64,000 nt of DNA from Lepidodermella squamata (lineage: Eukaryota > Animalia > Gastrotricha), in assembly GCA_047495785.1 (NCBI GenBank), contig JBLDXI010000030.1, positions 620,001 through 684,000 on the forward strand. Reading direction: 5' to 3'. Positions 892 to 43,825 of this stretch are shown in pieces (positions within the stretch are counted from its first letter, which is position 1; each line of letters begins with the position of its first letter). The notes beneath the pieces are model-generated. The model did no database searches and was not told the DNA's origin. It was given only the letters and a program-made list of their open reading frames with translations. Position numbers and translations under genes: made by a program.

Positions 892-915
892 GAAATTCTA
901 TTGCTAGTACAGCTG

Positions 916-2314: not shown

Positions 2315-2376
2315 ATTTTACCATTCCCATCATAACACGATAATACGATATTATAATCATGCATTTTTTCCATAGA

Positions 2377-4372: not shown

Positions 4373-4419
4373 TTTTTTTTATTATTTGCACTAGAGCTGA
4401 TTTGACCAAAACTAATATT

Positions 4420-5520: not shown

Positions 5521-5534
5521 CGCTTTTATTTATT

Positions 5535-5723: not shown

Positions 5724-5767
5724 TGCTTATACCGCGCGTATTGTACAGAATTTCTCAATATATATCA

Positions 5768-7850: not shown

Positions 7851-8360
7851 CGTGCATGAAACGTCGAATCGGTCGAAAACGTAGTGTTCCATTGTATTCG
7901 ACGGATGTAATGGATATACGACAATTTGGTCACTTAATGTGCTACCGATATTAGGCTTCTCATATGCCGTCAAATGATAAATTATTGGAGTCCAGATATC
8001 CAACGCAGGCACTGTGAAGTAGAGTGTGGCAGGATCTGCCCTCATACATTCCGTTTCTGACAATAGATCTGTGCATTTCGGTTTTTCGCATGGCAGCCCC
8101 CATGTTATGGATAGATAAAGAAGTAAAGACAGCTTTTGCTCCACGTCATCGATTCCTACAAAACGGTGGAAGCCAGCACGGATATTCACCTCAACCGGCC
8201 TGCTGCTGTTGGAAGACACTACTTGTTCCAGCAGTAGGTTTTTCGACATAACTGCTGGACAACGTTCAGAGAATTTCAACTCTAACTTGCCAGCCGCCGT
8301 TGACGCAGTTCCAAACGACGCGAGTTTTGCAAACATCAGCAAACTTAGGGGCGATGGCAT
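7851..8360 (-). pseudogene. 5' half of a Cys-loop ligand-gated ion channel gene disrupted by the Polinton insertion
   Basis: Clear paralogue of 14272-15444 up to FDRFDVSCT, the first Cys of the Cys-loop. The frame then runs into the element end (AGT AGT ATG TGA). Confidence 0.88.
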
Positions 8361-9758: not shown

Positions 9759-12035
9759 TCAACTGCCCACTACGACGGACTTGAATACCCCTGTACTAGT
9801 TGCAACAGAGTAAATCAAAGCTATGCAGAACATGAAAATATTGTTAATATTCATAATTCCGCTAAACTGGAGAAGAAAGTTTGCTAGAATTCCAAATACC
9901 TGCAACGTGAAAGAAGCCATCGAAGACAGTAGCAAAGGCTTGAACCTGTTCGAATTTTCTATTTTCAATCGCTTCATAGAGTTGAATGCCTTGAAGCTTA
10001 ATATGAGACCCGAGAATGAAATGCAAATGTTAATCATAACTAAGCCGATCGAGTAATCCCCGGAATTCGGCGATTCGCAGCTTATCCGTCTCGCGTAGTG
10101 ATAAGTATCGGTATCATAGTCGTAAATGGGCTTTACATCCTCAGTGTCTTCTAGGCTTTCCAAAACAGAGTCGTGTAATATCCAGGCTAAGCTGATAGCC
10201 AAATTTAAGATTAACCAAGATACAGCAAACCAAAGTCGAGACCCCTCTTTGTATACAACTCTTGTCTCGTCAAGATTTGTCGCTGAAATCGAGTATACTT
10301 CAGAGCGAGAGTTACCTCTTCCCCATCCATGCGTTACTGTCATTGGCTCTGGGGCGGTTCTTCTCCGGTGTGATGGGAGAGACTTGCGGATATCGTAAAA
10401 AACTACTAACAAGCAGCCGTTGATTAACGAAACTCCGCTCGCTAGGAACGTGATTTGCATGCGGCAAAAATTAGTTGAGCCCTGCAGTGTAAACAACGCA
10501 GCGGATGTATTGATTAGACAGAACCCAGACGTGAATAAAGTCAAGGTAACCCGATTCTTTGAATGAGCCATGACACGGAGGGCGAGAAGAAGTTGGCAGA
10601 CTGGGATGAGGCTTGAAATGATGCATCCAACCAGAGTAACAGAAAAACCGAGTTTCCCTATTGAAACTTCAATCGATGCTGAATCCTTCGGAAACAAGAT
10701 TCGTAATCCATTCAGTTCTTGCAACGAATATGATCTGAGGTTGTCTAAATTTTCTTTGACCAGAGCAACTTGATGAGTAACTACCAGGCCCATCTTTTCA
10801 AGACTCCAATACACAACAGATTGCGGCTCGAAGTCATATTCAAGCCTCGCTGAATATCGGAATCTTCCATATCTCAAATTGATGAAGTCGAGCCGAGAAG
10901 CACTTTGATTCGCAGCTTGCATCACAGTGTTAGGATCGGTCTGGAAATCACTCAAGCTCATTTTAGATTTACTAAGAATCTCTTCGGTCCCATTCAAAAT
11001 CATCAAAGCCGTTAGAATTCGATCGTAGCAAAGAAATCTAAAGTCTGAATCTGGGGTTTTAGTCCCATTAGTGTATTTTGAGAATAGGCTCTCGAACTCT
11101 TCAAAGGAGTGGCCTAAAGCTGTTCGAGTGTTCGGAGGTTTCAGAACGTCGAACGCAAACCCGATAAAAATGCTGATTTCAAATTGAGCCAATACCATTG
11201 TCCGGTTGCACTTATCACTAATATTGAACGGCAAGTTGAAGATATCGATGTAAGTTGTTAGCTGAAAGATGAAAAGATACCGGGGCCCGGTAATACCGAA
11301 TAAGAAACATTGGCACAGAAATTTCAAAGCCGCACTAGCTTCACTGGATTCCATAGTGAAAACACGGATATCTCTAGCCTTCAACGATAGTATCAGCTCG
11401 TCGTTGAAGTCGTAGCTTCCTTCAAAAACCTGAACTTGGAAACCGTTCTTTAACGCAGCTTGGTAGAATAAATTCGCCGTGTCGTAGTTGAAAGAATTCC
11501 CCGTGTAGAAAATCATGCCGATTTTACGAATATTAGTAACATTGCTTAGAAAGTATGTCCTAGCGTAGATGGCTAGTTCCGAGGGGCATCGAATTCGGTA
11601 CATGTTAGGATAAAGAGTTCTTCTTGCAGTTTGAACCGGAGAAGTACAGGAGCCTGCGACCATAACTTGGTTCAAATGGTGAGCAGCCATTCCCATAACT
11701 CGGCAGGCTGACGAAAGGAAAGGACCCGTGAAAACAGGCGATGCATTTGGGTTATTCCTCAGGTAGTCTATGGTTTCTTTTACTGAAAATCCACCGCCTG
11801 GGCCTTCGTTGCGGAAATCGATCGTGACATGGTACTCGGGAAGTAAGTCGTTGCGTTTGTTAACGATATCAACAACCATTTCCTGAACAGCTTTGCACAT
11901 CATGTTGTCACGTGGTTCGTAACCAGTCGTCATTATAAGGGATAACACTGAGAGTTTTTTGGGCTTCATAGCCATGGCAGAGAACAACAACGAGCTGGTG
12001 AGAAGTAACCACATTACTAGACTAATCGTTCGCAT
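9759..12035 (-). CDS. Class C GPCR, GABA-B-receptor-like (Venus flytrap + 7TM), intronless
   Basis: Signal peptide; VNKRNDLLPEY, FTGPFLSSAC and YPNMYR flytrap motifs; no Cys-rich domain; about 7 hydrophobic helices at the C-terminus. Confidence 0.85.
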   Translation of the reverse strand: MRTISLVMWLLLTSSLLFSAMAMKPKKLSVLSLIMTTGYEPRDNMMCKAVQEMVVDIVNKRNDLLPEYHVTIDFRNEGPGGGFSVKETIDYLRNNPNASPVFTGPFLSSACRVMGMAAHHLNQVMVAGSCTSPVQTARRTLYPNMYRIRCPSELAIYARTYFLSNVTNIRKIGMIFYTGNSFNYDTANLFYQAALKNGFQVQVFEGSYDFNDELILSLKARDIRVFTMESSEASAALKFLCQCFLFGITGPRYLFIFQLTTYIDIFNLPFNISDKCNRTMVLAQFEISIFIGFAFDVLKPPNTRTALGHSFEEFESLFSKYTNGTKTPDSDFRFLCYDRILTALMILNGTEEILSKSKMSLSDFQTDPNTVMQAANQSASRLDFINLRYGRFRYSARLEYDFEPQSVVYWSLEKMGLVVTHQVALVKENLDNLRSYSLQELNGLRILFPKDSASIEVSIGKLGFSVTLVGCIISSLIPVCQLLLALRVMAHSKNRVTLTLFTSGFCLINTSAALFTLQGSTNFCRMQITFLASGVSLINGCLLVVFYDIRKSLPSHRRRTAPEPMTVTHGWGRGNSRSEVYSISATNLDETRVVYKEGSRLWFAVSWLILNLAISLAWILHDSVLESLEDTEDVKPIYDYDTDTYHYARRISCESPNSGDYSIGLVMINICISFSGLILSFKAFNSMKRLKIENSNRFKPLLLSSMASFTLQVFGILANFLLQFSGIMNINNIFMFCIALIYSVATSTGVFKSVVVGS

Positions 12036-12230
12036 TATCTGGACAGCTATTGAATGAAATGGACGTCATTGCAGACTTAGCACAAGATTTATAATTCTAA
12101 TTAGCTGTTTGAATTGTCACTTGTCACGCCGCATGGTCTTAAGAGGAAGAAACTTTACTACCTTAGTCTTGACTAGCTCACGACTGACGGAAAAATCGAT
12201 AGTACAGGCTGCATAAGTTTGCCGTAGTAT

Positions 12231-14271: not shown

Positions 14272-15444
14272 TCAAGATAACATGAGGGAGAAAAGAACTG
14301 CGTCAATGATCATTACAGCCATGCCTGCCACTAGAGCCACTGCCAAGTCCAGAAGGCGATGCACGGGTATAACCAGGCATTTGTGTAATTTGACAAAGCG
14401 AGATTTCATTGTCTCTGGGATGCCAGGGCTCAAACACGTGTAGGCTGTTATAAGCACTGCAACGATGAACTTAGCTGCAACCATATACACAAGATAGACG
14501 TGATCTGAAGTTGTTGGCATCATGCCAAAAATTAAGGTGAGAAATACAACGTAGGACAGCACAACTGTCACGCAAAACGCTGACTGGTCCCTGTTCACAG
14601 GTTCGACTATCAAAGAAATGACTTGAAGGAAGAAAAGCGTGATGGTTGGGATGAAAATGTTACAGACGTAGTAGCCACTTTTGCGGCGAAATCGAATTGT
14701 CATATTAATTCGATCATATCTTAACGCGACCTTGCCCTTCGCTGATACATTGCTGTTATACTCGAGTGGCGCGACAACCGACCATATATCACTATCAACG
14801 ATGAAGGTATCGCCAGACGTTGCATCGATATCAAATAATTCAAGTTGAAATGCTACTTCATTGTGGGAATCACTGGATTCGAAAACTAGCGAGCAGGCTT
14901 GTGTATCGAAGGGAAATTGGCGGTAGCTGAAATCAGTACAGGACACGACGAATCGGTCAAAAATAAAGTAACGCATTGTCTTGAATGAGTCGAACGGATA
15001 TACCCAGACTAGGTCACTGAATTTGCGACCGACATCAGGCGACTCGTAAGCAGTCAAATCATAGATTATAGGAGTCCAAATGTCCATCGTTGAAGTTGGG
15101 AGGTAAAGCTCACTAGGATTGAGTATCGAGCACTCTGCTTCGGATAGTAAATCTGTGCATTTCGGGGTTTCGCATGGCAGGCCCCAAGTCATAGTTAGAT
15201 ATGCAAGTAAAGACAGCTTTTGCTGAACGTCGTCGATTCCCATGAAACGAAAGAGGGCCAGCGATATATTTACGACGACAGGACGGCTGTTGTTCGAAAA
15301 CACGGCTTGGTCCATCGGCAGGCTTTTCGATTGAACGGCCGGGCAATATTCAGCGAATCTCGCTTCCAGCCTGCCAGCCGTTGTCATGGCAGTTCTCACC
15401 GAATCAAGCTTCAGCGCCACCAGCAGAACGAAAAGCGATTTCAT
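14272..15444 (-). CDS. Divergent Cys-loop (pentameric) ligand-gated ion channel subunit, intronless
   Basis: Signal peptide, DIWTP, Cys-loop CTDFSYRQFPFDTQAC, pre-M1 FRRKSGYYVCNIFIP, four TM helices, PTTSD M2-M3 loop. Confidence 0.92.
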   Translation of the reverse strand: MKSLFVLLVALKLDSVRTAMTTAGRLEARFAEYCPAVQSKSLPMDQAVFSNNSRPVVVNISLALFRFMGIDDVQQKLSLLAYLTMTWGLPCETPKCTDLLSEAECSILNPSELYLPTSTMDIWTPIIYDLTAYESPDVGRKFSDLVWVYPFDSFKTMRYFIFDRFVVSCTDFSYRQFPFDTQACSLVFESSDSHNEVAFQLELFDIDATSGDTFIVDSDIWSVVAPLEYNSNVSAKGKVALRYDRINMTIRFRRKSGYYVCNIFIPTITLFFLQVISLIVEPVNRDQSAFCVTVVLSYVVFLTLIFGMMPTTSDHVYLVYMVAAKFIVAVLITAYTCLSPGIPETMKSRFVKLHKCLVIPVHRLLDLAVALVAGMAVMIIDAVLFSLMLS

Positions 15445-15693
15445 GATTTTCAGATTTCCATTGTATGTGTACCCTTGTGCAAGGCCGAAGTAATTCTCTG
15501 ACTCGAATTTGTATGCAGATGAATTTCATCGATCAACTATTTATTCGTCATGTCAAATTTCCTGTGAATACGCAATCATCGGCATCGGTAGAATCGGATA
15601 TAAAAACCTAGGGACTATTAGATATATGAGCTCGAAGCTATGAGAGGCAAGAAAGATTTGTGTGCATAAGGTAAAAACACAGGTTTAGGTATA

Positions 15694-17188: not shown

Positions 17189-18475
17189 ATGCTCGCAGCT
17201 CTGATCGTTCAATTACTCGTTTCGATAATACGAGCGGCTGAGTACATACCACCAGAGCGGAAACTTGCGCTGACCTTCATTGAAAGATGCAGCTTGTCTG
17301 AGAAAGCGAGGCCAGTTATCAACGCCCAGGATACTTTGGAGGTGTACAGCAGCTTCATACCCTTTCGGTTCTTAAGAATAAACGATCGAGAGCAAACGTA
17401 AATTTCCAATTTTTTACGGGATTCATTAATGCATTTCATCCGTAGTTTTTCCGTGTTCGGCGAGCTTGATATCAGTTGGAAGCATCCATGCATGACTTGG
17501 GAGGTGAATGACACGGGTATACCTCAGATAGATCTGTTCGCTGCTGAAACCTGGCGCCCAATGTTGACGCATTCAAACGGAGCTGATGATGTAGCATATT
17601 GGGGTCCTGAGAAGTAAGTTAACAACATTTTAACGATGATCCATACAATTTTTTGTTAAGCAGCGTAGCCGATAACCACGGCCTGATTTCAGTAACGAAT
17701 GATGGCACTTTTTTCCTACCCATTGTGTCAACTTTCACATCATTTTGTGCCTTGAAGTTAGTTTCCTAATTCCCGTTTAGGTGATAGATAACTCCTTTAT
17801 CGTTCTAGCCTACGGAAGTTCCCTTTTGATCAACAAGTCTGCACTATTCAGATCGAATCCTGGTTTCCTAGATCTAGGATTCGGATGTTCCTGAGAGATA
17901 ACACTTCAGATATTACTGTTATGGCGAATTTCATTACTTCAGCCGACGTTTGGCGACTTGACAGCGCCAAGGCCTCAATGGGGGTCAATATCTACAGCGG
18001 GATAGGCGACCCAGGAGGAAGTGACTTCGACAAGGCGATTTTTGAATTTCGAATGAATCGCAACCCAGCAATAGCTATTGTCAGTCTCTTCATTCCTAAT
18101 TTAGGCCTCGAAGTCCTGCTGTTAGCCTCTGGAATAATGCCGCCCAAATCCACAGATCGGCCGGCTTTTTGCGTTACTGTCGTACTTGCTTATACTGTCC
18201 TGCTGTCCCTAGTGACTCAAGCTTTGCCTTCGACCTCCGATATCTGCTACGCCTTGGTTTTCACGGCCTTTCTACTCTGTCTCGGCGTTGTTTGCGCGTT
18301 GTATACGCTGCTAGCATGCGAACTTGCTAATCGGGAAAATTTCAAAAAACGTGGAATATCATTTGGATGGTTCAAGATTTCGGTAATCAGACTTGTGGAT
18401 GTGATAGTTTTCACCGGTTTAACGATTTTTACTCTATTCGTGAACTTTGCAATTTTTATTCTAATAACTTCTTGA
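17189..18475 (+). CDS. Divergent Cys-loop ligand-gated ion channel subunit, 4 exons (about 17189-17397, 17446-17613, ~17661-17756, 17809-18475)
   Basis: Signal peptide MLAALIVQLLVSIIRA, WRP motif, spliced Cys-loop CALN|LRKFPFDQQVC, M2 DRPAFCVTVVLAY, PSTSD; ~48-52-nt GT-AG introns. Confidence 0.88.
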
Positions 18476-18687: not shown

Positions 18688-21094
18688 TTACGTGACTCTT
18701 AGATTGACGATGGTAGCGTGCATTCTTCGATGAGTTGGTTGCGGAGATTTTATGAATCCGAAGAAGATAGCTGTCACGGTTGATATTGAGTAGACCAGAA
18801 GACCACTGGCAACTAAGGTCGTGCCTTGGTGAGCTCGAGAGGGCTTATCTATTGCCAGAGCCAGTTCTCCGAGAATGACCGCTAGAGTGATGAGCAAAGC
18901 ATTCCATACAGCTATACGATAGGTCTTAACATCAAGCTTGAATCTAGCTCGAAGCCTCGAAAAGCAGGATTTCCGCATGAGAGCAGCTTGAAAGCAAGCG
19001 ATAAATAGCAATATGACCTGAATCGACACCAGCGTTGTTATCAAGTAGTAACTGTTATTTGACCAACAGGACCGAACTTCAATACTGTAGAAAGAGTCGA
19101 GTTCTGAACTGAATTCAGTTTCAGTAAAACTTGATACATAACTCATTGGCTCAACAATTTGCCATATGACGAAAATCAGCGTGCAACTGCTCACAATGAT
19201 CGATACCACTTGAATGATAGTTTTTTGAAGGGCAATCATTGCCACGTGTTTTACCCTTTCGGCCTTAGCGAGGCTGAATGAAAACCTCAACCGCTGACGT
19301 CGACTGATGTAGAAATGCAAACTCATAAAGCGTATCATAGTAGCCATTCGAATGTAAATCGCTGAATTCACCATTGACAATCCAACCACAGTGAAAAAAT
19401 CCCGAATGTTGCAGTAAATTTGAGGGAAATACACCGGGCCGAGCATAATGACATAAACTGAAACATTCAGGAGCAAACAGCCGAGGAGAACAGCGAATCC
19501 ACTGCAAGTGTTGAAGTAACGAGATCCAGCCGTTTTGAGTCTGCCCCTGATAACAGCAATAGCAACGATTCCAATTATGATTTCGATGAAAAATATGAAA
19601 GTAGCCAGAACGCACAGTACATAGATCGCTGTAAGGTCAATAGAACCTTGGATGCTAACAACCGCTGATAGATCCTTCGGTGCTTTGCCATTCAAAGTTG
19701 CCCAATTTACGGGGGACATTAATTCAATGGTTTGGGTGGATATATTTTTAAATGTAGCTCGATTTCCGGTGAAGTTCACGCGAAAAATGAAATCGCTACT
19801 CGACAGTCTTTTTCCAGTTCTCTGAACCAAGAAAGATGTCCCAGTCATTAGCAAAGATTTCTTGTTGAATGATCTCCAATATTCGAAACGACTACCCATC
19901 TCTGCGAAGGTTTGACTAACAATGGCTGAATCTGGATTGTCGCTACGGAAATCTCGGAGACTGAGATTGCGTGGCTTCAGCGCTGCTTCTGTAGCGTTAA
20001 GAAGGAAGAGACCGCTGAGTAATTGACGATTCAACGCAGCTAATTTAGTCGTGTCGAATGGACATTTTTCTATCATTAGGGCTTTAGCTTGTCCGGATTT
20101 GCTGTAGAGATACTCGCTGTCTACTACCGCTAAGACGGCAGGGGCATATAGATGAAATAATGGATCGTTTGTCCAATGGGTGAGAAACAAAGATATTCTG
20201 ATTTGCTGGTATTGAATGGACAGGTCGCAGGCAGAAGCTGTTAAATCAACTCTGTAGCCAACGCAAGCTGAATTCGGAAAAAACAAGACGTATTCCGGGG
20301 CTCGAATCCCTGCTGCGTAGCTGTCACAATAAATCCTCGGGCAATCATCAGGTAGAAAAGTCCCTGATAGAACGAGAATCCTAGCTAGGCCAAGCTTCTT
20401 CACTGCTAAGAATTCATTGTATGACACGCCAACCTCAGCTTGAACGACTTCTATGCCATTCGCCTCGAAAATCGTTGCATTCCGAATGAGAACATCAGCA
20501 GATCTAAAATCCTCGGTATCAGTGGACAGCAACGCGATTTGGCGCCACTTTCCAATGTGAAGGATCGTATTTATAGTGGCATGCTTGATAAAAGTGTTGA
20601 TAGGATCGTCATTCCAGACGTCTTGTGGCCACGTCCACCAGAAACTACCGAATTGGAACTGGACTTGAGACAGTGATAATGACGCTCTTATCGCCTGAAA
20701 TATACGCTGATATCTAACGTCTTCGGTTTTCAGGGAAAGCTGGGGTCCCATGAAGAATGGAGAGAGCGAAGTGTTTTCCCGAATTTCTGACTCAATAGGC
20801 TTATAGAAGCTCACAATGTCCTGGGAGAGGAAAGCAAGTTCCGTGTCGAAATATTGAAGCTGCAAGCGGTGATTTGGCAGAATTCTTAGGTTCGAATTTA
20901 TGCTGTCCACTAAAAATGCCAAGGCCACTTTCGAACACCGTTGCTCTTCTCCTGCGTCTGAGTTGGCAGAAGAACTTCAAAACTTCAAGACCAGCCGTGA
21001 AGACTGGCACAATTATTGAATGATATTTCGAGAGGCAGCTATCCAGGCTGTTCACGAGCGCTAACAAGAAAACTGACCAGCCAGTGAGCAGCAT
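18688..21094 (-). CDS. Class C GPCR (Venus flytrap + 7TM) with an apparent frameshift near 20975; possible pseudogene or sequence error
   Basis: Signal peptide MLLTGWSVFLLALV (ATG 21094) is in a different frame from INSNLRILPNHRL...FMGP...7TM. No intron evident. TTGAAGTT is tandemly repeated at the break. Confidence 0.75.
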
Positions 21095-23315: not shown

Positions 23316-23433
23316 GTGGGACCAAGATGGGACAAAGACTTGAGTGCTCACCAGATGCAATGTGTTGCAATGCAAATAAAAGCAAAGTTTCAACTTGCAT
23401 CCAAAATATATTTCAGCATAGAACGTAAATAGA

Positions 23434-26400
23434 ATGCATTTATTGTGCTGCCTTTTACTGCTACCTACAATTCAAGCATTCTCACGACGGCAAGTCGTCG
23501 ATCCAAGAAAGGTAATCTTGGCCTAAAAACAGGCTGATGGTTATCAATTACAACGGCGTGATTTTATAGAATTACCACGAATGTCCGATTCCGCAATTGC
23601 AAAACAGCGTTGTCCTTGTTCGAAGCTGGTCGATGGATGAACTCAATGCCACGCCTATGACGGTCAAGGCCGGCACAGAAATAACGATTGAATGTCCTGT
23701 TGGACAGAACTCTACGGCCAACAGTTTTGTTTGCGGCGATGATGGGCGTTGGTCGAATCAAGATGATAATTTCTGTTTGTAACTTTTCGGTGAAACTTTG
23801 TTTAAGGTTTTTGTTTGATACAGGCTCGCGAAATTCGGAATTTCAAACTCAGACTCGGAGAAAACGCGACTTCTTGACTATTTTGGCAAATATCATATGT
23901 AAGCTTCTAAAACTTAGCTTGATTGTTGATCATGTCCCTTTTAGATTGGCAAGATCCAACGTTCTGGATCTGTTATGGCATTCTTACTCGCCCAGCCGAA
24001 ATCTTACAAACCACGACGCCAGCTTTCATTCCTGATGAAGAACTACCTGATGCGAGTGGTGAACCTGACCTGTACGAAGACTCGCAGCCTCCAGACGCTA
24101 CACTGACATCGCGGTTTTTCGAAGCCATCAGAAGCAATGACGTGGTGGAAGCAAGTCGAATTTACAGCGAATCTAACGGTGTCACCAAGGCTCGCGATAG
24201 CCGCAATCAGTCGGCGTTGATAGCAGCAATTGAAACCGGATCGAAAGATATGGTGGAGTTTCTTCTAAAACTAGGCGTGAATATTGAACGAAATTCGTCC
24301 GTGATCACGGCAGGTTAGTTTCAAATTTCAAAAAATGTAAAGATTTTTAAGCTCGGAGTCCCTGAAAATACTCTTGCTAATCATCTCTTTCCCATACCCC
24401 ATACCCCTATTAAGCGATTTTTGCTTATTTTTAGCTAGTTAGATATGTTCTTTTCCTGTGTTCGTTAATCTTTTGGTTATGAAACAATGCCATATTGATA
24501 GTCTTAGGTATATATAATAGCAAAATTTGGATAAAATTCGTGTGCCGATAAAACTTCAGAGAATTGTAAATTAATTTTAAATTTTAAATTAAATTAAAAA
24601 ATTAAATTTCACGCGTTATTGGAAACTTAAAAAAGTCGTTTGCTCTTAAATTAAGAAATTTTACCTGGGTGAAGCGTGAAGCTTTGCTGATTTTACCATT
24701 TCATCCATTTCATCAGTCCACGATGCCCTTATTTCAGACTGGCTTATTCCAATCAAAGTAGCCTTAGTTTAGTTGGAGACCGATTTCTAACTTTTCTAAC
24801 TTATTTTTCTTAGGGGTAGGGGAGTCTTTTTCTTTAAAAATCCTGCAATTTGTGACTAAATGTTTTGTTCAATTTTACAGCCAAGTCGGGAAATCCTGAA
24901 ATCGTCAAGCTGATGATGTACTCGAATTCGAAGCTCCAGGTGGCTGAAGACGGGCGAACTGCGTTGCACTGGGCCTCGGAATTGGGTCACACCGCCGTAG
25001 TAGATCTCCTCATTGATCACGGCGCGGACCCCAGGGCAAAAATGAGCTTGGAAAATGACGAACAAACAGCGGTTCATGCAGCGGTCCTACATGGCCACAT
25101 CGAGACGCTCAGTCACCTCCTCGACAAAAAGCCGTGTCTCGTAAACTTGACCAATCGATTGGGTGAAACTCCTCTCATACTCGCCGCACGACTTGGCCAC
25201 CTTAATATTGCCGGAAAGTTGGTGCGAAGGTACAACGCTTCCCTCGACAATGAAGCCGCAGAAGGCGAGACGGCTCTTTTCGTTGCCGTAGACGCTGGCC
25301 ATCTTGCTGTGGTCAGACTATTGGTCTCTTCAGGAGCAAACTTGACAACAAACAGAACAACAACACTTCACATCGCCGTCACACGAAATCACCCTTCGAT
25401 CGTCGAGTATTTGTTGGAAAATGTTCCTAATGCCCTTCGTCTGCAAAATAAATGGAATGAGACTGCGTTACATGTAGCAGCTGCGAATGGTTGGGAAAAG
25501 ATGGTTCGCCTTCTGGCTGGGAAGAACTTGCCTTATGTGATAGATTCACTTGGCCGGACGGCCTTGCATTCCGCTGTGGCTAATGGCCATCTGGCGATTG
25601 TTCGTCTTCTTACGAGCAAAGCTCCGTCCTGGCTGAGGGCCAGAAGCTATTTGCGTGATAATGGGGATACGCCTTTGACCTTGGCAGTTCGAATCGGAAA
25701 TCTCGAAATTGTTCGAGCTTTGCTAGATCCGGATTTTCGAGTTCGAATCTCAGAACGAACTGCAACAATGAAGACTCCGCTTCAAGTTGCAGTGCTGGCT
25801 GGGAAAACTGATATTGCGTGTTTCCTCGCCAGAGCGAAGGCTGGTGCTAATATGACTGTTGATGAGGCAGGGCAGGATCTGAAAACTCCGCTGATTGTTG
25901 CGGCTGGTCTTGGCTATAGCGAAATCGTTCAGTGCCTTGTTGAGAGTGGAGCGAATATTACGGCCATCTATGGCATTGGAATTGGCAAGATTACTGCAGT
26001 TCATGCTGCTGGTAAGTTATCGGGTTATCCTACGGATTTCGTGACCCTCAAAATCAGTCACTGTGATCTAATTTGAATAGAGAGCTTTTACCAATTTACA
26101 ATCCAATTTGAGATTCAATTTTTCAATTCATTTGGATTTTTAACGATACCTTTTTAACAATAATTCCTTATCATTTTCGCAGCCATGAACGGATCGGTCG
26201 ATGCTTTGAAAATTTTGGTTCGATCAGGCGGGGAAATTGCTCTCAATGCGTTAGATGGAAATGGTTCATCGCCCCTGTTGAGAGCGATCGCTGCTAAACA
26301 AAACTCGGCTACCCACCTACTTGTTGATCGGGGCGCGAATATTGATGCGAAAACCCCTCAAGGCATCACGCCGCTGCTGAAAGCGGCTGAAGATGGGAAT

Positions 26401-26702
26401 TATGACATTGTCGAGTTTCTCCTAAGCAAGAAAGCTGATATCGAAGCCAGGGATGCTGATTTTAGGACCCCACTCATAGCAGCCGCAGGTATGCCTAGAA
26501 AATTCTTAATTTGAGATACTACTCTTTTTTCGAAAAAATGTCTATAGCTTCTGGGCATCTCAATACAACCCGTTTGCTGGTCGAAAGAGGGGCTGATGTA
26601 ATGGCTGTGACTTCCATCGGGTCGACAGCCCTCGATTTAGCTATTGCTAAGGGCCATGCGGATGTTGAGGATTATCTAATACGCCACGTTACCCATCGCT
26701 AA
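23434..26702 (+). CDS. Secreted Sushi/CCP + furin site + ankyrin-repeat protein, copy 1; exons 23434-23511, 23570-23774, 23824-23898, 23945-24313, 24881-26011, 26183-26488, 26548-26702 (772 aa)
   Basis: Signal MHLLCCLLLLPTIQA; Sushi ECPIPQLQN...IECP...FVCGDDGRWS...C; RRKR; acidic linker; about 16-18 ankyrin repeats. All junctions are GT-AG and phase-compatible. Confidence 0.85.
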
Positions 26703-27000
26703 ATCTAATCTAGAATCAGTCCTAATCTATCTACATATTCGTTTTCCCTATGCGTGATTTTCCCAGGTCAGCCTTTAGAATTTGACTTATTTCTTTGTTC
26801 TTTTCTACGAACGTTGTCTGTGAAGCGTTTGAAAAAATTGATTGTGGTGAAAATTAGCAACTTTTTGTCGGAATTCCTATGGAACGTTTTTCAGTCATTT
26901 CTAGTCCGAATCGCGGCTGTAAATAAACAAATGCGAGAAGTAAAGAGAAATAAACAAGTGCATTTTCCCGTTCGCTTTTTTCTAGAGAGGTTTTACACGA

Positions 27001-29879
27001 ATGCTTCAGCTCATTTGCTTCCTGCTGGCACTGACCCTGCAAGTTTATGGCCATCATGTAAGTTCACCAGCAAGATTCTATTAAACTTGACTGTATATCT
27101 TTCTGCACAGGAAGGCGTGGAATGCCCGATGCCAAAATTGCGAAATGGAGTTGTGATCGTCCTGAGGCGGTCGTCAACAGATGTAGTTCACGTCACACCT
27201 ATATCGGCTGAATTCGGTACTGAAATCACGATTAAGTGCGACGATGGTTATGAAGAGAGAAACGCATCAGTAAACTTGTTCACTTGTGGCCAAGATGGAC
27301 GCTGGTCGAATGAGGATGACATTTCTTGTTAGTCATTTTCCGATGATTCACCGTATTCCCATTTCTTTAATTTTACAGGCGTCATCGATTCATCTTTGAG
27401 TAGACCTCGACGTGGCCTTCCAACATGGGGTAAGCAGTTCTGAAAATTCAATTAGACCCATTTATCCAAGAAATGGGTGAATCGAAAACCTGCTGAATTT
27501 TCTTTATTTTTTTCGATGATAAATTGCAGATCCCATGTACATGCTATGCGGTCGTTTCAACATCAGGCGTCCCGAAACCGAGCAGACAACAACACCAACA
27601 TTTATTCCAGACGAAGAATTTCTCGATGAAAGTGAAATGGACTACTACGACGAAGATACCGCGCCTCCGAGCTCTTCCTTAACATCTCAATTTTTCGAAG
27701 CCATCAACAGAAATAATCTGGAAGAAGTCAGTAAAATGTATGGCGACTACAATGGCGTCGTTAAAGCTCGGAATGACCTGAATCAATCAGCCTTGACTGC
27801 CGCAATAGCTGCCGGGTCTAAAGATATCGTTGAATTTCTCCTCAATCTCGGCGTGAATGTTGAACGCAATTCTTCTTTGATTGAAGCAGGTCACTAACCA
27901 GGATTTATTTTCTGTATTTCCATGGTTAAAAGCTCCTTAATTACTTAACACTTGAGTGTTTGTCTTTTCCAGCAAAATTTGGCGATCCTGAAATAGTTGA
28001 AATGCTGATCTACGCTGATGCGAAGCTTCAGGTAGTTCATGACGGCCGAACAGCTCTGCACTGGGCCTCGGAATTAGGTCATGCAGCCGTAGTCGATCTG
28101 CTCATTGATCACGGCGCCGATGTTCGGGCTCAAATGGACGATGAGAAAAGCAACGGCAGCACTGCAATTCACGCTGCTATTTCGCATGGGCATTCCGAGA
28201 CTTTCACGCGGCTGCTTGACAAGAAGCCGTTTCTCATGGAATCGGTGAATAGATTCGGCGAGACACCTCTCCTTCTAGCCTCACGCCTCGGTCATCTCAA
28301 AATTGTTGGAACGTTGCTGAAAAAGTCGAATGGTACAATTGAGGCTAGGACTAAAGATGGCGAAACTGCGCTACTGGCTGCCGTGGATGCTAATCAACTC
28401 CCAGTCGTCAAATTTTTGCTTTCGAAAGGCGGAAATGTGTCGGCTGTTAAAAACGACAGTAGTACGGCGTTGCACCTAGCTGTCTTGAGAAATCACACGT
28501 TAATGGTCAAATATTTACTGAAAGCTGCTCCTCACTTGCTCAGTAAACAGAACGACAAAAACGAAACTGCTTTACATTTGGCTGCTTCGAATGGACTGAT
28601 TGAAATGGTTCGTCTACTTACGGAGCAGGATTTGCCTTTTCTGATTGATTCACTTGGTCGGACGGCCTTGCATTCCGCTGTGGCTAATGGTCATCTGGCG
28701 ATTGTTCGTCTTCTTATGACCAAAGCCCCGTCCTGGCTGAGGGCCAGGAGCTATTTGCGTGACAATGGGGATACGCCTTTGACCTTGGCAATCCGAAGAG
28801 GGAATCTCGAAATAGTTCGAGCTTTGCTAGAAACAGATTTTCCAGTTCGAATCATGGATCGAACTGCTTCCATGAAGACCCCGCTTCAAGTTGCAGTTCT
28901 GGCTGGGAAAACTGATATTGCGTGTTTCCTCGCCAGAGCGAAGGCTGGTGCTAATATGACTGTTGATGAGGCAGGGCAGGATCTGAAAACTCCGCTGATT
29001 GTTGCGGCTGGTCTTGGCTATAGCGAAATCGTTCAGTGCCTTGTTGAGAGTGGAGCGAATATTACGGCCATCTATGGCATTGGAATTGGCAAGATTACTG
29101 CAGTTCATGCTGCTGGTAAGTTTTGTATTTCACCCTGGTGAAACCTGGTGAAACATGAAACATGGATAAGTGGGAATGGCCTTTGGGTGGACCTTGGTTA
29201 AGGTGGCCTCATGGCAATAGGAAACAGTAAGCTCTTATTCAGTCTCTAATTTTTCCATTGTTCAGCCATCAACGGTTCTGTCGAAGTCCTGAAAGTTCTA
29301 GTGAAGCATGGCTGGAAGAATGTGCTCAATGCGAAAGATGGTTTCGGATCAGTACCGCTGTTCACAGCGATCAAGTCACAACAGAACGCGGTCGCTCGCG
29401 CGTTGGTCGAACTCGGAGCAGATATCGAAGGTAAAACCGTGCGAGGTGTCACGCCGTTACTGATAGCAGCCGACGAAGGAAATTTCGAAATGGTAGAATA
29501 TCTCCTCGGCAAGAAGGCTGATATCGAAGCTAGGGATGATTACTCCAGAACACCTCTCCTAGCAGCTGCAGGTTTGTGAGAAAATCATGAAATGCCGAAA
29601 ATACCTTTCAATTTTGCAGCATCTGGCAATTTAAACGTAACCCGTCTGCTGATTGAAGAAGGAGCGAATGCCCTGGCTACAACCAATCTCGGCTACTCGG
29701 CCCTTCATCTGGCTCTAGCTTACGGCAAGAACGATGTAGCTGAGTACCTACGCAGCGCCAAGCCAGAGATAACTTCGCTGACTACTACCGACACATTGGC
29801 GACAGTTAAGCTGAACAATATTAATGCCATGCTAAAAATTGTGCTTCCGAGCCGTAGAATGCTAACCACGCTTGGCTAA
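27001..29879 (+). CDS. Secreted Sushi/CCP + furin site + ankyrin-repeat protein, copy 2; exons 27001-27057, 27111-27327, 27379-27429, 27530-27889, 27973-29115, 29266-29571, 29620-29879 (~797 aa)
   Basis: Signal MLQLICFLLALTLQVYG; Sushi ECPMPKLRNG...IKCDDGY...FTCGQDGRWS...C; RPRR; same intron positions and phases as copy 1. Confidence 0.85.
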
Positions 29880-30122: not shown

Positions 30123-32831
30123 CTAGCCCACAGCTAACAAAGTTTCGGACGATTCTGAAGCCATTACGGACCTATCATGAATCAATCGCCTGTTGCGAAC
30201 GGAATTTCGGAAAGTTCGAATTGAACTTTGAACCCAGCCGCGTTGTTTTTCGGTTTGATAATCCCCCCTTTTTTCACGCATGCTCAACCGTTTATCAGCC
30301 GAAATAATCTCCGAGTTCACTGCCTGTGCACGTTGCATAGTTGCTTCAATCCCTGACTGAAAACGAAAGTTCGAGTTGCAAACTCCGATCAGGGTCGAGG
30401 TGGCAACGTGCATAGGTTTTTCCCATTTTTTTTATTTTTTTTTTTATTTTTTTTTATTTTAAAAATCAAATCTCACGGTAAAAAATAATTATTTTGAATT
30501 TTGTGTCACTTTGTAACCAAACCGAGCCCGGTAATTTGGGCATCGCCATCATAGTCATTAATTAGCTGTTTAGCAATTTGAGCCTTTTGCAAATCCTTCT
30601 CATCAGCCCCGTTTTCCAGCAAATAATTCGCCACATCGGTGTGGCCATTAACAGCTGCCCAGAACAGCATTGAATTTCCATTCGAATCCAACTCGTGCTC
30701 AATCAATTTCGTCACCGATCCGGCCGAGTGATTCGTATGTTCACGCTTCAACGCTTCGTCCAGCAAAAATCTCGCAACAGCAAGATGGCCGTTCGCCGCG
30801 GATGAAAATAACGCAGTCATGCCCTGTTGTTGCGTTTTGAAATACGTGATTTTCGCGCCATTTTCCACTAAAATTCGACAATTCTCCAAATGGCCATGTC
30901 TTGCGGCTAACATCAACGCCGTTACGTTTTGCTCGTCGTTAACATCCGCGCCTTTTTCAATGACTTCTTTACATAAATCGGCGAAATTTGACTTGAGAGC
31001 TGCCGCTTTTAGGACGTTAATCCCGCTGTGATTTTTCGCGTTTACCGACGCGCCGTTGCTAAGCAACAACCGGCAAATTTCAGCGTGACCGAAATATGCG
31101 GCTTGAATTAGGGCGGTTTCCCCGGTTGAGGAGGCATGGTCCAACTCGGCGCCGTTTTCTAGTAGGATTTTGCATATTTCGAGGTGGCCATTTTCGGCGG
31201 CTAGTGTTAACGCTGTGAAGCCACGTTCGTCTGTTTCGTTGACGGGGAATTTTTGTTCGGTGAGGAGATACTGGCAAATGGCGGCTTGGCCTCGTTGAGC
31301 CGCTAACATGAGGGCGTTGTGGCCGGGTGTGTTTTTCTGTAGAAGATCGGCGCCTTTTTCTAGGTAGAGCTTCATAAGGTCCAAATGGCCATTCCAAGCT
31401 GTGTTCAGGTATAACGAAGTACCTTGAAAAATCAAAAATTTTATATTAAATTTGTTTCAAAAGTAAATAAAAAAAATTGATTCGCTTAAAGTTCCAAATT
31501 TTTCAAAATTTAAAATATAAAAATTATTTTAGCAAAGAAATTTGGAAATATAATGTTATAAGTAAAGTTTGAGAAAATAAATATAAAAATTCAAGTTAAT
31601 TTAAAAATGTTCGAAAAAATATAAAAAGTTGGGATTTCATTGATCAATATTTTTTCAGATTGGTTATGGGTTACCGACCTGGTTTTATTAGGCCAACAAT
31701 TTCAGGAAATTTTCGAATTTTTGAAATTTATTTGAATCTTGAATTTTTTTGCAAATCCTTTCTGATTTTTCTAAATTTATCTGATTCTGCGAATTCGAAA
31801 ATCGAAAATTTGGTGATCTCGTCTCTCTAATTAATATAGACCCGCAAAATTTAGGTTCCCCAGCTCTTGCACACCCATTTTATTACCTTGGCTATTAGCC
31901 CACGCCAGATTAGCGCCTTTTTCCATCAAAATACGGCAAACATCGTAGTTTCCACTCGTTGTAGCATAGGCCAACGGCGTTCCATGCTGCGACGCATCCG
32001 AATCCTCCATATTGGCTCCGTGATCGATTAAGAGCTTAACAAGTGCCGGCTGGCTGGCTTTCGGCTGGCCGTAACACGCGATTATGAGCGGAGTTGCATT
32101 TTCGAGGTTGCGAAAACTCGCTCGGAAATTAGGATAAGCGCCGTGTTCGAGCAATTTTTCAACGTGCGCTAGATTTATCGGATCGGCACTTACAGCTTCG
32201 ATTAATTCCATGTTCGTATTCTTCAATGACAAAATTATGAAAAAAGAATATCAGGAAATTTATAACACATCTTCCTTCAGGGAAATATAAGAAATAATTT
32301 GTTTCAAAGATTTTAAAATTGGAATTTTGAAAATTTTGAAATTACTATTTTGAATTACTACCTATGCACTATTTTGAAAATTTTGAAAATTTAATTTTAA
32401 ATTTACGGAACTCTCAAATTCAAAATTTTCAAAATTTTCAAATATATTTTCAAAATTTTCAATCTAAATTCAAATATTTCAAAAATGATTTCCAAAATTA
32501 TGAAACTAACACGAAGTGACGCTCCCAATTTGAAGTTGTCATTCAATGCCTGAGTTAGCCTATCAACAATGGAGCTCGCATCCAAATCGACAGCATCCAG
32601 AGCCAGCTCTTCATGGTCGACATTGTCGCCCTGCGCCACCGTAGCTTGGCTTAGCAGCTTTCTGACATGCTGATCGACAAGAGCCTCCAGCACTGATTTG
32701 AGAGCTCGGCCAGCTTCGACAATTTCGAGCAGTTCTTGGTACTCAGCCAACGCCTCAACATCAGGCTCGCCGTGCTCATCTTCCTCCTCAGAACTGAACA
32801 AAATTTCTTCTTCACTTGAAAATGAGCCCAT
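30123..32831 (-). CDS. Intracellular ankyrin-repeat protein; exons 32831-32511, 32220-31887, 31422-~30520, possible last exon ~30355-30123 (3' end uncertain, may stop at 30506)
   Basis: Multiple TAL..AA..GH ankyrin repeats. Acidic N-terminus MGSFSSEEE (MGxxxS, possible myristoylation). First two introns are phase-compatible. Confidence 0.8.
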
Positions 32832-34949: not shown

Positions 34950-36731
34950 TTACTGCACCAAGCAAATGTAGCTGCTGTGAGCCGGCACATACTGCGCCTC
35001 TTTCGTCGAAAACAGCAACTGAGACCGGTAGCCCATCGGGCAGCTCGTGACGCCAGTCGCCGGGTTGACGGCATTCTTCGACGTCTGTGTTTCATAAATC
35101 GAATAGAACCCACCGACTAACGCGCCTGGAACCGGCGTGAAAAACGCGTAGATATACTCACAGCCGTAGTTGGCCACCAAAATCACGTGTTGGGCTCCAA
35201 GGACAGTATGATCAGTTACATTGGCGCCGTAGTCGCGGAACGTTGGCTGGCATTGCGCGTCTCGAAGGCATTGGTACTTGTAGTCACCCATGAATTGCCT
35301 GTCATTAACGCGCCGCTGGAAGCCGAAAAACGCGCCCTGAGGATCGACCGACCCGTTACGGCACATGAAGAAGTACCCGGGCAGTGACGTAGACGGTTGC
35401 TGCTTCCAGAATTCTGGGCCCTCCCTGCACTCCGGCTCTGGGAACAAATCCGCAGGCCCACCACCGATTTTCAGCTTCTCATAGCCCAACGGGCAGTCGT
35501 AGACGTTATTCATCGGATTCGGAATGTCCGTAGTCAGCGAAACATCAGCCTTGTAATAAGTCCCACCGAAGTTCGATTTTCCGAGCTTCCGGTACTCGAC
35601 GTTTTCGGGGAGCTCCGTGTTGCAGTTGACCACGCCGTCGTAACGATTGACAGACGCTAAATGGCTGCAATAAGCACCACCGTCGACTACGGCTTCGAGG
35701 TTTTTGCGTTTCTCCTCGATTTTCGGGTCGTTCGGGAAGAATTGTGGGGTCAAAAGCTTAGTGATAGGTATCAAACGGAAGTCGATTGGCATAGGGGTCT
35801 TGCGAGAGTCTTCCAGCCATTTCGCCGTAGTATTGTAAGGACCTTGTTTGGTCGGTGGCGGTGCTCCAATCTTTAAAAAAAGTTCATTTCTGAAGGCAGT
35901 TCATCCTATCCAACTTACCGAATGAAGGGTAACACTTGAAGCCAACTCAGTGAATCTATCAGCAACTTGGGTCTCCTTCTCATCTTGGTAGTTGAAGGTC
36001 GCTTTGATGAATGCGAAACCAGCCGCTGTCTCAACGTCAAAGCTCGAAAATTCGCGCTCAGCCCTTGCGTAGTTCTCACTCGTGAAGGTCGCCCGTTGCC
36101 AGAACAGACTGCCGGCTCGCATCGACGAAACAACATGCGTGCCGAACTTCCTAAGAACAGCAAAGTATTGCTGAAGAGCTTCGTGTGATGTGGTATCAAG
36201 GGACAGTAGCCGAATCGCCTCGACAAAAGCTGGATCGAGGTTTGTTGGCTTCAGGGGGAACTTCAACTCGGCGCAGTAGACAATGCAGGATGAGGACGCG
36301 TCGACGAACATGTTCTTGTAGTTGCTCGTCTGCTCGACCGTATGCATGTAACCCTCGCCAGCTCGGAAGCTGAATACTTTACCCAATTCGATCCCGCCCG
36401 AAATCTGCCTACCCATCGAGTTCCTGTAACTCTCCCCGCCTGAAACTGTGCTAGCCTCGTAGGCCAGTTGGCAGGCTGTGCATTCGACTACATCGGTGAA
36501 GTCTGGGACTGTGTGCTTGCCATCGGCGGTCAGTTGGTTGGATTTGTAGCTCGTCATGTCTAGGACGCTTGAGACGAACCCGGCATCGATTGGTTCGGTG
36601 ACTGGCCGAGGGCTTGCTCGAACAATGTCGTAGCCACGGCCGAGGAACCCGATGTTCGGGAGCCGTGGCAGAACACTTTCTGCCGAAATCACTTGGCTCA
36701 GAAGAAAGGTCACTAATATTTTAAAGAACAT
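34950..36731 (-). CDS. Secreted MACPF pore-forming protein with MPEG1/perforin-2-like C-terminal domain; exons 36731-35919 and 35870-34950 (577 aa)
   Basis: Signal peptide; LGRGYDIV and FGTHVVSSMRAGS MACPF motifs; FGGTY...NPMNNVYDCPLGY and GGFYS...NPATGVTSCPMGY resemble MPEG1 P2 repeats; 48-nt phase-0 intron. Confidence 0.88.
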
Positions 36732-37421
36732 TCTTGAAGTATGTAATGGGAAAATTTGAGCTCAGCAACTTGTATGGCGCATGGGCCCACAATTAGCCGT
36801 TTAATCTGTAAATTTGCATAAAGATAGCATTGGTGAACTCTTTCAAAGGTCACACTCATAAGAGATGGGTGGAGCGTATGCGACAAATATCTTGATAAAT
36901 TCGCAATCCCAACCTGAACTGTAGAGAGCAAGTAAGGTAAGGACCAGCGAAATTTTGAGCAACCTCGAATTAATTACGAATAATGTTTACGATTTAATTG
37001 GAATAAACCTCTTATTGAATGTTAAAAATCATTCAACCCTAGTCCTAAACCATAACCCAGAGAGCAAAGTAGGACAGCCGAACTGGTTAGGATAAGGAAA
37101 ATCGACATAAGGGTCCCCCCTTTGGTCTTAGACTGAGTTCACCTTGCGGACCGATTGATCCCTACCATCCCTAGCGGTACTTCGCATAACCTCCAATCCT
37201 AATCCTATCCCTGAATCATTTTCAGATAATCTTAAGCTGGAACACTCCTAGTAAGAAAAAGTGGACACTGAGCAACTATTAGGATTTGAAATTCCTAAGT
37301 CCTAATTACGACCAGAAATAATAATTCGCGAATAAATTTCTCAAAACAATCAAAACCGTTGTAAACAAAGGCTATGCATTGCTTTATTCGTGAAGTGAAA
37401 ATATTATGTCAATTGTCGTGT

Positions 37422-42084: not shown

Positions 42085-42644
42085 TGCGTGCTTTCACTAT
42101 AATTTAAATAAAAAACCAAGGAGGAGAATCATCCGAATGGAACAATCCTCCTCGAATTATGAAATAGAAATTCATTTTCGTCTTATTTTCTATGATAACA
42201 ATTCAAAGCTACAATGGAGACTTCGGTTGATCATGAAATGAGTTGGATCATTTCAAGATCAGATGTAAAATGTAAAAGAAAAGTTGAAGCGACCACGTCT
42301 CATTTCGTTTCGAATTGTTTGTAAGATGTGCAAACTACGCCACATTCTACAAGTAATCTTTCCTACCCATGTCAATCTGCGCTAATTTTCGCGATCCTGT
42401 TGTTTTCTATGGATTTGGTGCTAGATGCTAATTGATTAGCACAAAGCTATATAATATAATAGTTGCTTTAATCTGGAATCGACACTATGATCGTTATAAA
42501 TAAACGCACGGCCGATCGATCTACCATATTTAGACATTTCGGAAGTTTGTTTTGCATTGAGCTGAAAGGCAAACGAAATGTACAGATCATTGCTCAAACA
42601 TCAGATCGAACATAATATATACTTCACCTTTTGGTTTTCACACC

Positions 42645-43825
42645 ATGATGGGCTGCTTCCCCTTTATTTTTAGCGTTCTAGTTTCAAGCGTCATGGCTAA
42701 TGAAACTTTCGTGCCAATGGAAGAGCGAATTATGAGGTATTTCTCTGAAAAATGCACACTTTTCAGCAGAGGAAGGCCTGCCTCAACATGGAAGCCGGTC
42801 AATGTCAGCGTCGACTTCTGGCCATTCCGCTTCAACTTACTTGAAGAACGAACTCAACACTTTTCCGTTATGGCCTCGCTACAACTGTCATGGAACCATG
42901 AATGCGTGTCATGGGACCCAGGTCAATGGGGCGGGGTAGCCTACATAGCAGTAAAGGCTGGGGATGTATGGCGACCAACGTTACACATGACAAATGGAGC
43001 TGAAACTATTCCAATATCATCATTTCTTAATGATTTCTCTAAAATTGAGTACTACAGTGACTCAATAGTAACGCTGATTCTCTATGGCGAATTCAAAGCA
43101 TTCTGCGCTCTGAAGTAAGTTGGCTCAAAGGCATTAGGTATATATATATATATCATTTCCCATACCAATTTAGCTTGGAGAAGTTTCCTTTTGATCAGCA
43201 AAATTGCCCCATCAACTTTGATTCGTACGATTATTCCGAGCACACAAAACTCACAATTGGCGCCTCTTCAACCTTCATCCAAGATGAAGCAAATCCTTTC
43301 ATCAGCACAGTTGATGCCTGGGAACTTGTATCCTACTCAAATAGCACATTCGCAGTATCCAACGAGCTGATGTCTCAACAACGCGTGTCTTTTCACTTCT
43401 TGTTAAGGAGGAAACCAGCGTTGTACATCATCAACATATTCCTACCTACGCTGTGCATGAGCGTTCTACTTTTCGGCGCCGTTTTCATCCCAGCCGATTC
43501 ACCAGATCGATCTGTTTTCTGCGTGACGGTGCTTTTAGCTATTTCCGTCCTCCAGGCTGATATCAGCAGTCAGATACCGGTGACAAGCGAAATTCCATAC
43601 GCACTCGTATTCCTGACCGCGCACTTTTTTGCCGCAGTATTCTGCGGCATTTACAGCTTGTTTGCTTGCGAAATGTCCGATTGGCCACGAATGCAGATTA
43701 AACTCGCAATTTGCGGTAATTTCAAAGTTCGCCGGTTAAAAATTATCGATATTGCTGTTTTCAGCTCCATCTTCTTCTTGCTATTGCTAACTGATACAGC
43801 GATACTCGTCAAAATGACAAACTAG
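42645..43825 (+). CDS. Divergent Cys-loop ligand-gated ion channel subunit, 2 exons (intron 43115-43173)
   Basis: Signal peptide, DVWRP, CALN|LEKFPFDQQNC, LRRKPALYIINIFLP, M2 DRSVFCVTVLLA, PVTSE. Confidence 0.92.

Follow-up and report, generated by a model that had tools for sequence, protein, structure and literature searches.

A tandem gene pair in Lepidodermella squamata predicted to encode Sushi-headed ankyrin-repeat proteins of the secretory pathway

Textbooks present ankyrin repeats as the binding scaffold of the cell interior, and the only well-studied extracellular ankyrin repeats in animals, to our knowledge, are those of the spider latrotoxins. The locus analysed here raises the question of whether a gastrotrich, too, sends long ankyrin arrays through the secretory pathway. 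It lies in a stretch of 64,000 nucleotides (nt) from Lepidodermella squamata (assembly GCA_047495785.1, contig JBLDXI010000030.1, positions 620,001 to 684,000 of the forward strand), which we call the window and from whose first letter all positions are counted, and it consists of two neighbouring genes, G1 and G2. A first-pass annotation made from the sequence alone had read them as secreted, furin-processed ankyrin proteins headed by a Sushi domain. All of the features it listed that can be checked in the DNA are present, and the architecture is probably real. We consider, with moderate confidence, that each gene is spliced from seven exons to give one secretory-pathway protein, whose ankyrin array is likely N-glycosylated and whose chain is likely cut at a dibasic site.

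Gene models and domain content

One model was assembled per gene from the six-frame list of open reading frames (ORFs) and the raw sequence and was confirmed by script, the joins between exons being predictions:

23434..26702, forward strand: gene G1, seven predicted exons, coding sequence of 2319 nt, 772 amino acids (aa), intact ORF
23434-23511, 23570-23774, 23824-23898, 23945-24313, 24881-26011, 26183-26488 and 26548-26702, forward strand: exons 1 to 7 of G1
27001..29879, forward strand: gene G2, seven predicted exons, coding sequence of 2394 nt, 797 aa, intact ORF
27001-27057, 27111-27327, 27379-27429, 27530-27889, 27973-29115, 29266-29571 and 29620-29879, forward strand: exons 1 to 7 of G2
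26922..26954, forward strand: two AATAAA hexamers (at 26922 and 26949) past the G1 stop codon
29904..29909, forward strand: AATAAA, 25 nt past the G2 stop codon

The genes are tandem paralogues, neither of which has an internal stop, and the earlier description of two tandem 7-exon genes held in its coordinates. All 12 introns (46-567 nt) run from GT to AG; intron 1 is of phase 0 and every remaining intron of phase 1. An in-frame stop stands 5 codons upstream of the G1 ATG and 6 codons upstream of the G2 ATG, and 298 nt separate the G1 stop from the G2 ATG. Sushi and ankyrin families were the only ones returned by Pfam.

Both genes are also preceded by strong acceptor-like sequences (TTTCAG at 23411-23416, 17 nt 5' of the G1 ATG; TTTTTTCTAG at 26976-26985, 15 nt 5' of the G2 ATG), and the G1 AATAAA hexamers stand only ~50-80 nt ahead of the G2 ATG. 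Should the organism use spliced-leader trans-splicing, this arrangement would fit it, with G1 and G2 as an operon-like pair.

The predicted proteins begin with a leader and a Sushi module (also called a complement control protein, CCP, module) and end in a long ankyrin array:

23434..23484, forward strand: signal-peptide-like N-terminus of G1, 17 codons with a hydrophobic core, residues -3 and -1 being Ala and Ser
27001..27051, forward strand: signal-peptide-like N-terminus of G2, 17 codons, residues -3 and -1 being Val and Gly
23570..23774, forward strand: Sushi/CCP exon 2 of G1, its fourth Cys codon completed over the exon 2/3 junction (T|GC; TGT if unspliced)
27111..27327, forward strand: Sushi/CCP exon 2 of G2, with the same junction Cys as G1
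24196..26699, forward strand: 17 ankyrin repeats of G1, encoded by exons 4-7 (the range includes introns), 12 N-X-S/T sequons
27772..29876, forward strand: G2 array of 17 ankyrin repeats and a non-repeat tail of ~40 aa, 12 sequons

Signal peptides were assessed by hydropathy, by the -3 and -1 residues and by inspection only. The highest 10-residue hydropathy within the first 30 aa was 2.62 in G1 and 2.99 in G2, and both N-termini display, on this heuristic basis, what is expected of a cleavable signal peptide: a hydrophobic core of ~10 residues, small residues at -3 and -1 and no later transmembrane (TM) helix. The signal peptide named in the earlier reading is thereby recovered in both genes as a signal-peptide-like leader.

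Exon 2 carries the hallmarks of a CCP module in both copies, namely a Cys-Pro start, four Cys and Gly-Arg-Trp-Ser ahead of the last Cys. The two exons are 51% identical, with the four Cys, the Cys-Pro and the Trp common to both. Against Pfam PF00084 (gathering score 20.7), G2 reached 32.3-33.3 bits; the single Sushi domain proposed at first pass is accordingly seen as a Cys/Trp/Pro pattern in both genes and passes the Pfam gathering score in G2, not in G1. A profile built from the two copies matched 35 Protein Data Bank (PDB) sequences at E<=1, nearly all of them complement-type CCP proteins, though weakly (best E 7.4e-4). A single-sequence AlphaFold model of the module was too poor to judge (mean predicted local distance difference test score, pLDDT, 57.9), and the Foldseek search with it gave FN3-type rows only, at E>0.2 and thus meaningless.

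The ankyrin assignment (PF00023, PF12796) is strong, with exon 5 matching Pfam Ank_2 at E 1.8e-65 (G1) and 1.6e-77 (G2). Segmentation of each protein gave a degenerate N-terminal capping unit followed by 17 repeats, within the range of about 16-18 first suggested. The nearest solved structures to exon 5 are ankyrin-1/ankyrin-2 and NOMPC (E 1.7e-85, 1.3e-78), and latrotoxin chains match as well, at E 1e-47. The membrane-binding domain of ankyrin-1/2 and NOMPC offer the closest solved sequences and are likewise long superhelical ankyrin solenoids, but they are cytosolic and have neither leader nor Sushi module.

The claim that no TM helix is present was borne out by a hydropathy scan, in which no TM-like 19-residue window appeared in either protein except within one ankyrin helix pair. 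Enumeration of splice paths gave middle exons of at most 75 nt, too short for a TM helix in any formal path. A hydrophobic G1 stretch spanning exons 3-4 was considered as a TM helix and rejected: its mean hydropathy is ~1.0, Gln-Asp-Pro lies in mid-stretch and G2 has no counterpart. By inspection, neither C-terminus resembles an endoplasmic reticulum (ER) retention signal or a glycosylphosphatidylinositol (GPI) signal. These observations also set the pair apart from Notch-type type I receptors, in which a leader and a disulfide-rich extracellular N-terminal module are likewise combined with C-terminal ankyrin repeats and which, in the case of Notch, are also cut by furin. A TM helix between the two parts is required there, but G1 and G2 have none and no splice path with room for one.

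Evidence for a luminal or extracellular array

The N-glycosylation sequons of the arrays, whose abundance had been remarked on at first pass, bear on where the arrays reside. Over the whole protein, G1 has 14 sequons and G2 has 13, where shuffling gave averages of 5.4 and 5.3. In the ankyrin region alone, each protein has 12, where 4.15 (G1) and 4.38 (G2) were expected; 1 and 2 of 5000 shuffles, respectively, reached the observed count. Because ankyrin repeats have position-specific composition, we also compared the pair with ankyrin controls, taken as the best 120 of the 1384 protein matches to exon 5. The ratio of observed to expected sequons was 2.87 in G1 and 2.73 in G2, above every one of these controls (median 1.03, maximum 2.34). 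In raw sequon density, 3 and 4 of the 120 controls equal or exceed G1 and G2. As an internal control from the same window, the leaderless ankyrin gene at 30506-32250, ~1 kb downstream, gave a ratio of 1.45.

The positions of the sequons are conserved as well. Outside a tract of gene conversion, described below, 7 of 10 G1 sequons align with G2 sequons, where a null rate of 0.24, derived from non-sequon Asn and Ser/Thr, would apply (binomial P = 0.0027). In four of these seven the residues themselves have changed (for example, N-A-S against N-G-T). By repeat position, 10 of the 12 G1 sequons fall at 3-5 or 28-32, which is the exposed inter-repeat loop of the canonical ankyrin fold. The altered turns reported earlier (GANLT, GANMT, GANIT and GGNVS) are all present and are rare in the controls: G[AG]N-x-[ST] accounts for 3 of 4 matched turns in G1 and 3 of 3 in G2, compared with 24 of 991 in the controls, none of which has three.

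Taken at the level of sequence, these patterns suggest that the sequons are kept by selection and that the array is likely N-glycosylated. A luminal or extracellular array, as initially proposed, is the best in silico reading of a sequon excess that is conserved between paralogues.

One transcription unit or two

For the arrays to enter the secretory pathway they must be joined to a leader, and the only one on offer is exon 1. The predicted junction runs through a mini-exon and an acidic linker:

23824..23898, forward strand: predicted mini-exon 3 of G1, 75 nt (25 codons), phase 1-1, RRKR at 23856-23867
27379..27429, forward strand: predicted mini-exon 3 of G2, 51 nt (17 codons), phase 1-1, RPRR at 27402-27413
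24031..24096, forward strand: acidic linker of G1 with acid-flanked Tyr, downstream of a conserved Thr-Thr-Thr-Pro
27607..27669, forward strand: acidic linker of G2 with Tyr-Tyr flanked by Asp and Glu, Thr-Thr-Thr-Pro kept too

In both copies the mini-exon restores the fourth Sushi Cys (T|GC) and carries an R-x-K/R-R motif, which agrees with the earlier placement of RRKR and RPRR on an exon of their own. The motif occurs exactly once per protein, at a homologous position between Sushi module and repeats. Its Arg codons differ between the copies (cgg/aga against cgc/cgt), and no alignment of the two mini-exon regions could be obtained at the DNA level. When the sequence was shuffled, 2 of 20000 trials for G1 and 5 of 20000 for G2 produced an open middle exon with both the restored Cys and R.[KR]R. 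Cleavage by a furin/kexin-type convertase at this site is likely, judging from the motif. The acidic linker was located in both genes as first described. Thr-Thr-Thr-Pro and acid-flanked Tyr resemble sites of mucin-type O-glycosylation and tyrosine sulfation, both of which are Golgi modifications, and the linker might conceivably carry O-glycans and sulfotyrosine.

The exons on either side of the mini-exon are under constraint. Between G1 and G2, the proportion of nonsynonymous differences (pN) lies well under that of synonymous differences (pS) in exons 2, 4, 5 and 6, and synonymous sites are saturated. For the Sushi exon pN is 0.24 and pS 0.79, and for exon 4 they are 0.22 and 0.74; such low pN at saturated pS indicates that both exons are coding and held by purifying selection. 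In G1, four out-of-frame ATGs follow the exon 4 acceptor before the first in-frame ATG at 24250, and the first 100 codons of the exon, conserved and with no in-frame ATG after the acceptor, imply that an upstream exon is needed. Between the stop of the Sushi exon and exon 4, neither gene contains an AATAAA. The luminal marks of the arrays, for which exon 1 supplies the sole leader, point the same way. Overall, the sequence makes it likelier that the Sushi and ankyrin exons belong to one transcription unit than to two genes.

Several observations weigh against a single spliced secretory-pathway product. The junctions of exons 2, 3 and 4 are predictions. Frame-keeping GT-AG paths number 20 in G1 and 30 in G2, a direct splice from exon 2 to exon 4 among them, and an open in-frame middle exon per se appears in 71-80% of shuffles, so that the boundaries of the mini-exon are not fixed. 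The R-x-K/R-R motif had been singled out in the first-pass annotation before the shuffle test, which makes its P-values post hoc. Exon 3 is hardly conserved (4 of 15 aligned residues, pN 0.5). The n-region of the signal peptide has no basic residues, and the signal call was made by hydropathy only. The G1 Sushi module scores 17.5-18.1 bits, under the PF00084 gathering score of 20.7. After the Sushi module, 4 Cys remain in G1 and 3 in G2, with no clear disulfide pattern, and no relative of the same architecture was found in the collections searched, hence no comparative support. In both genes, moreover, if exon 2 is read on past its donor, the fourth Cys is still encoded and a stop follows (TGT TTG TAA in G1, TGT TAG in G2), which means that a stand-alone Sushi peptide is also encoded, and G2 has an in-frame ATG (27535) 5 nt past the exon 4 acceptor.

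The last two points lead to the main rival, which splits each copy into two genes: exons 1-2 would encode a small secreted single-Sushi peptide of ~92-95 aa, and a leaderless cytosolic ankyrin protein might start at the ATG at 23932 in G1 (inside 'intron 3') or at 27535 in G2 (in exon 4), the two being operon-like if there is trans-splicing. Besides the read-through stops and these in-frame ATGs, it gains from the short intergenic spacers in the window (298 nt between G1 and G2, with AATAAA ~50-80 nt before the G2 ATG), from the poor conservation of exon 3 and from the frequency with which chance alone opens an in-frame middle exon. We nevertheless regard it as unlikely. The sequence from the Sushi stop to exon 4 offers no AATAAA in either gene; the candidate ATGs are at non-homologous positions, and a trans-spliced G1 exon 4 would meet its four out-of-frame ATGs first. 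A cytosolic protein would also leave the excess and the conservation of the sequons unexplained, and chance seldom yields what both mini-exons have, an R-x-K/R-R together with the junction Cys, as the 2 and 5 of 20000 shuffles show.

A further possibility is that the pair are decaying duplicates or an assembly artefact, with an architecture that has no function. The two copies have one tract in common:

25795..26018, forward strand: gene-conversion tract of 224 nt, the same letter for letter as 28899-29122, with its end 7 nt inside intron 5

The ~250 nt upstream of this tract (25543-25794) are ~90% identical to their G2 counterpart. An identical tract within a pair whose synonymous divergence is saturated points to recent gene conversion in an old duplication. 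An independent sequencing run (X1) covers the locus in 29 of 30 bins; its coverage extends to the introns, which identifies it as DNA. It contains a second version of G1 (23405-24340) that is identical over 23587-24037 and 8-11% different in exon 1 and later exon 4; the changed codons are 12 synonymous and 16 nonsynonymous in exon 4, and 2 and 4 in exon 1. For the N-terminal part of G2, a version differing by 3% has an in-frame 3-nt deletion at 27641. These variants may represent alleles at high heterozygosity, recent additional copies or, for G1, a close paralogue.

Decay or artefact could appeal to the 16 nonsynonymous against 12 synonymous changes in exon 4 of the variant copy, and to the lack of any relative of the same architecture in the searched collections. 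We consider it very improbable: both ORFs run unbroken through their 772 and 797 codons, pN is well under pS in 5 of 7 exons at saturating divergence, the independent DNA run covers the locus, and 12 synonymous changes among 28 changed codons exceed the neutral expectation. Exon shuffling had been put forward as a possible origin; the Sushi exon is of phase 0-1 and not of the classical symmetric 1-1 kind.

Relatives, possible roles and surroundings

To look for relatives of the whole architecture, we searched protein and metagenome collections and the literature. A word-indexed search of longer proteins returned no match to exon 4 and 1384 matches to exon 5, of which the best 120 are 25-35% identical and have PF00084 listed in none. 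An exon-4 HMMER profile run against 1.84 billion representatives gave 4745 matches; the best 150 all aligned through the ankyrin part, leaving profile positions 1-27 uncovered. The Sushi profile found nothing among 272 collected ankyrin proteins. In metagenomes, a scan with exon-4 patterns detected no relative, and a scan with exon 5 retrieved 80 generic ankyrin loci at 26-42% identity, in whose six-frame translations the Sushi profile had no match; applied to the window as a control, the same profile recovered exactly both Sushi exons. The literature searched held no animal family with signal peptide, Sushi and ankyrin repeats. Within these protein, metagenome and literature collections, then, the family remains undescribed, as first suggested. 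The organism seems poorly sampled, and the absence of relatives is for that reason weak evidence: the Patched-like ORF of the window has a best relative at 56% identity, and the next is a frog protein at 25%. The neighbours of an ion-channel ORF come most often from Nematoda or Mollusca, and Rfam gave no match.

The underlying principle does have precedents. Latrotoxins had been named as the notable exception to cytosolic or nuclear ankyrin repeats, which proved too narrow in view of RON9 of Toxoplasma (PMC3299665) and of the ankyrin proteins, periplasmic or secreted, that begin with a signal peptide and are common in bacteria. As described in PMC8630228, the latrotoxins of widow spiders (alpha-latrotoxin and the latroinsectotoxins) are animal proteins with long extracellular ankyrin arrays, and their precursors are processed at two furin sites. 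G1 and G2 share the long array and the predicted furin-type maturation, but their repeats are preceded only by the leader, one Sushi module and the linker (~170 aa) and are followed by a tail of 0-40 aa, and they do not qualify as members of the latrotoxin family. RON9 belongs to the secretory pathway and has a signal peptide, six ankyrin repeats, a Sushi domain and, at its C-terminus, a TM segment (PMC3299665); with its coccidian and Cryptosporidium orthologues it resembles the pair in that one secretory-pathway protein unites a leader, an ankyrin array and a single Sushi/CCP domain. By description the two differ: RON9 is apicomplexan, has 6 repeats and PEST repeats, and bears its ankyrin repeats and Sushi domain C-terminally, with a C-terminal TM segment (same source), whereas in G1 and G2 the Sushi module stands ahead of the repeats and a C-terminal TM segment is absent, so that they are not RON9-like in architecture. 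Several bacterial N-termini among the collected matches likewise have an export leader followed by ankyrin repeats, but these proteins are without Sushi module, convertase site, N-glycan sequon pattern or introns. The G1/G2 architecture itself appears, as far as the searches reach, to have no match.

If the favoured reading of one spliced secretory-pathway protein per gene is correct, the chain would enter the ER co-translationally by way of the exon-1 leader, and the signal peptide would be cleaved. The Sushi module would fold with its disulfide bonds and the ankyrin repeats into a solenoid, on whose loops N-glycans are suggested by the sequon statistics. In the late Golgi a convertase may then cut after the dibasic site, to judge by the motif, freeing an acidic-tailed 17-repeat solenoid from the Sushi module; to go by the fold, its groove might bind a protein ligand. 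The product would serve as a soluble extracellular or luminal binding scaffold, with the Sushi module, which had first been read as a pro-domain, as a possible second binding or targeting element. The immune, recognition or toxin functions suggested at first pass are hypothetical.

A more specific proposal, to which we give somewhat less than an even chance, is that these ankyrin arrays of 17 repeats are genuine extracellular binders, N-glycosylated and matured by a convertase from precursors with the Sushi module at their head, and that they form a natural secreted recognition or toxin system akin to designed ankyrin repeat proteins ('DARPin-like'). The family would duplicate in tandem, with gene conversion homogenising one stretch of the array and the remainder diverging. 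If true, the ankyrin fold would prove to tolerate the secretory pathway in another animal setting, unrelated to the latrotoxins, engineered ankyrin binders would have a natural counterpart, and a class of genes would be mislabelled wherever annotation by ORFs or by domain rules equates ankyrin with cytosolic.

A product stored in a gland or granule and acting on or in the cells of another organism, in the manner of a venom or effector and with the dibasic cut as activation, is quite unlikely in our estimation. The latrotoxin precursors, with long ankyrin arrays matured at two furin sites (PMC8630228), provide a model for it, and latrotoxin chains do match exon 5 at E 1e-47; that match, however, reflects ankyrin arrays in general, and far higher scores go to ankyrin-1 and NOMPC. 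RON9, located in a secretory organelle, unites a signal peptide with ankyrin repeats and a Sushi domain (PMC3299665), and 5 kb from the pair there is a MACPF gene whose N-terminus is leader-like. The pair themselves have no pore-forming or helical N-terminal domain, since the repeats have only ~170 aa ahead of them, in which Pfam detects no family but Sushi and ankyrin, and they have neither a C-terminal inhibitory domain nor a TM segment.

The window around the pair contains Cys-loop channel, class C G-protein-coupled receptor (GPCR), Patched, MACPF and major facilitator superfamily (MFS) genes, with few and short introns. Its other features are as follows:

30506-32250, reverse strand: conventional ankyrin-repeat gene, tail-to-tail with G2, its apparent start without a hydrophobic leader
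34950-36761, reverse strand: MACPF/perforin-domain gene, 5 kb from the pair, with a leader-like N-terminus similar in style to those of G1 and G2, conceivably part of a cluster of secreted genes for defence or attack
51114-53341, reverse strand: paralogous Cys-rich ORFs (51114-51533 and 52868-53341) without a Pfam match at E<=0.001, whose CxxC spacing recalls nuclear-receptor zinc fingers
1-6814, reverse strand: run of long ORFs, the last of them an integrase bearing rve and chromo domains (5768-6814)

The last of these resembles a large Maverick/Polinton-type DNA transposon, a likeness for which the integrase alone was checked; the ORFs of 262-369 aa beside it have no Pfam match, and one of them (916-1704) has a P-loop-like motif. 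Four Cys-loop ligand-gated channel genes or fragments are spread over the 64 kb (7839-8417, 14272-15525, 17792-18475 and 42561-43825), and two class C GPCR-like single-exon ORFs occupy 9759-12065 and 18688-20976, with a fragment resembling the latter at 57087-57449.

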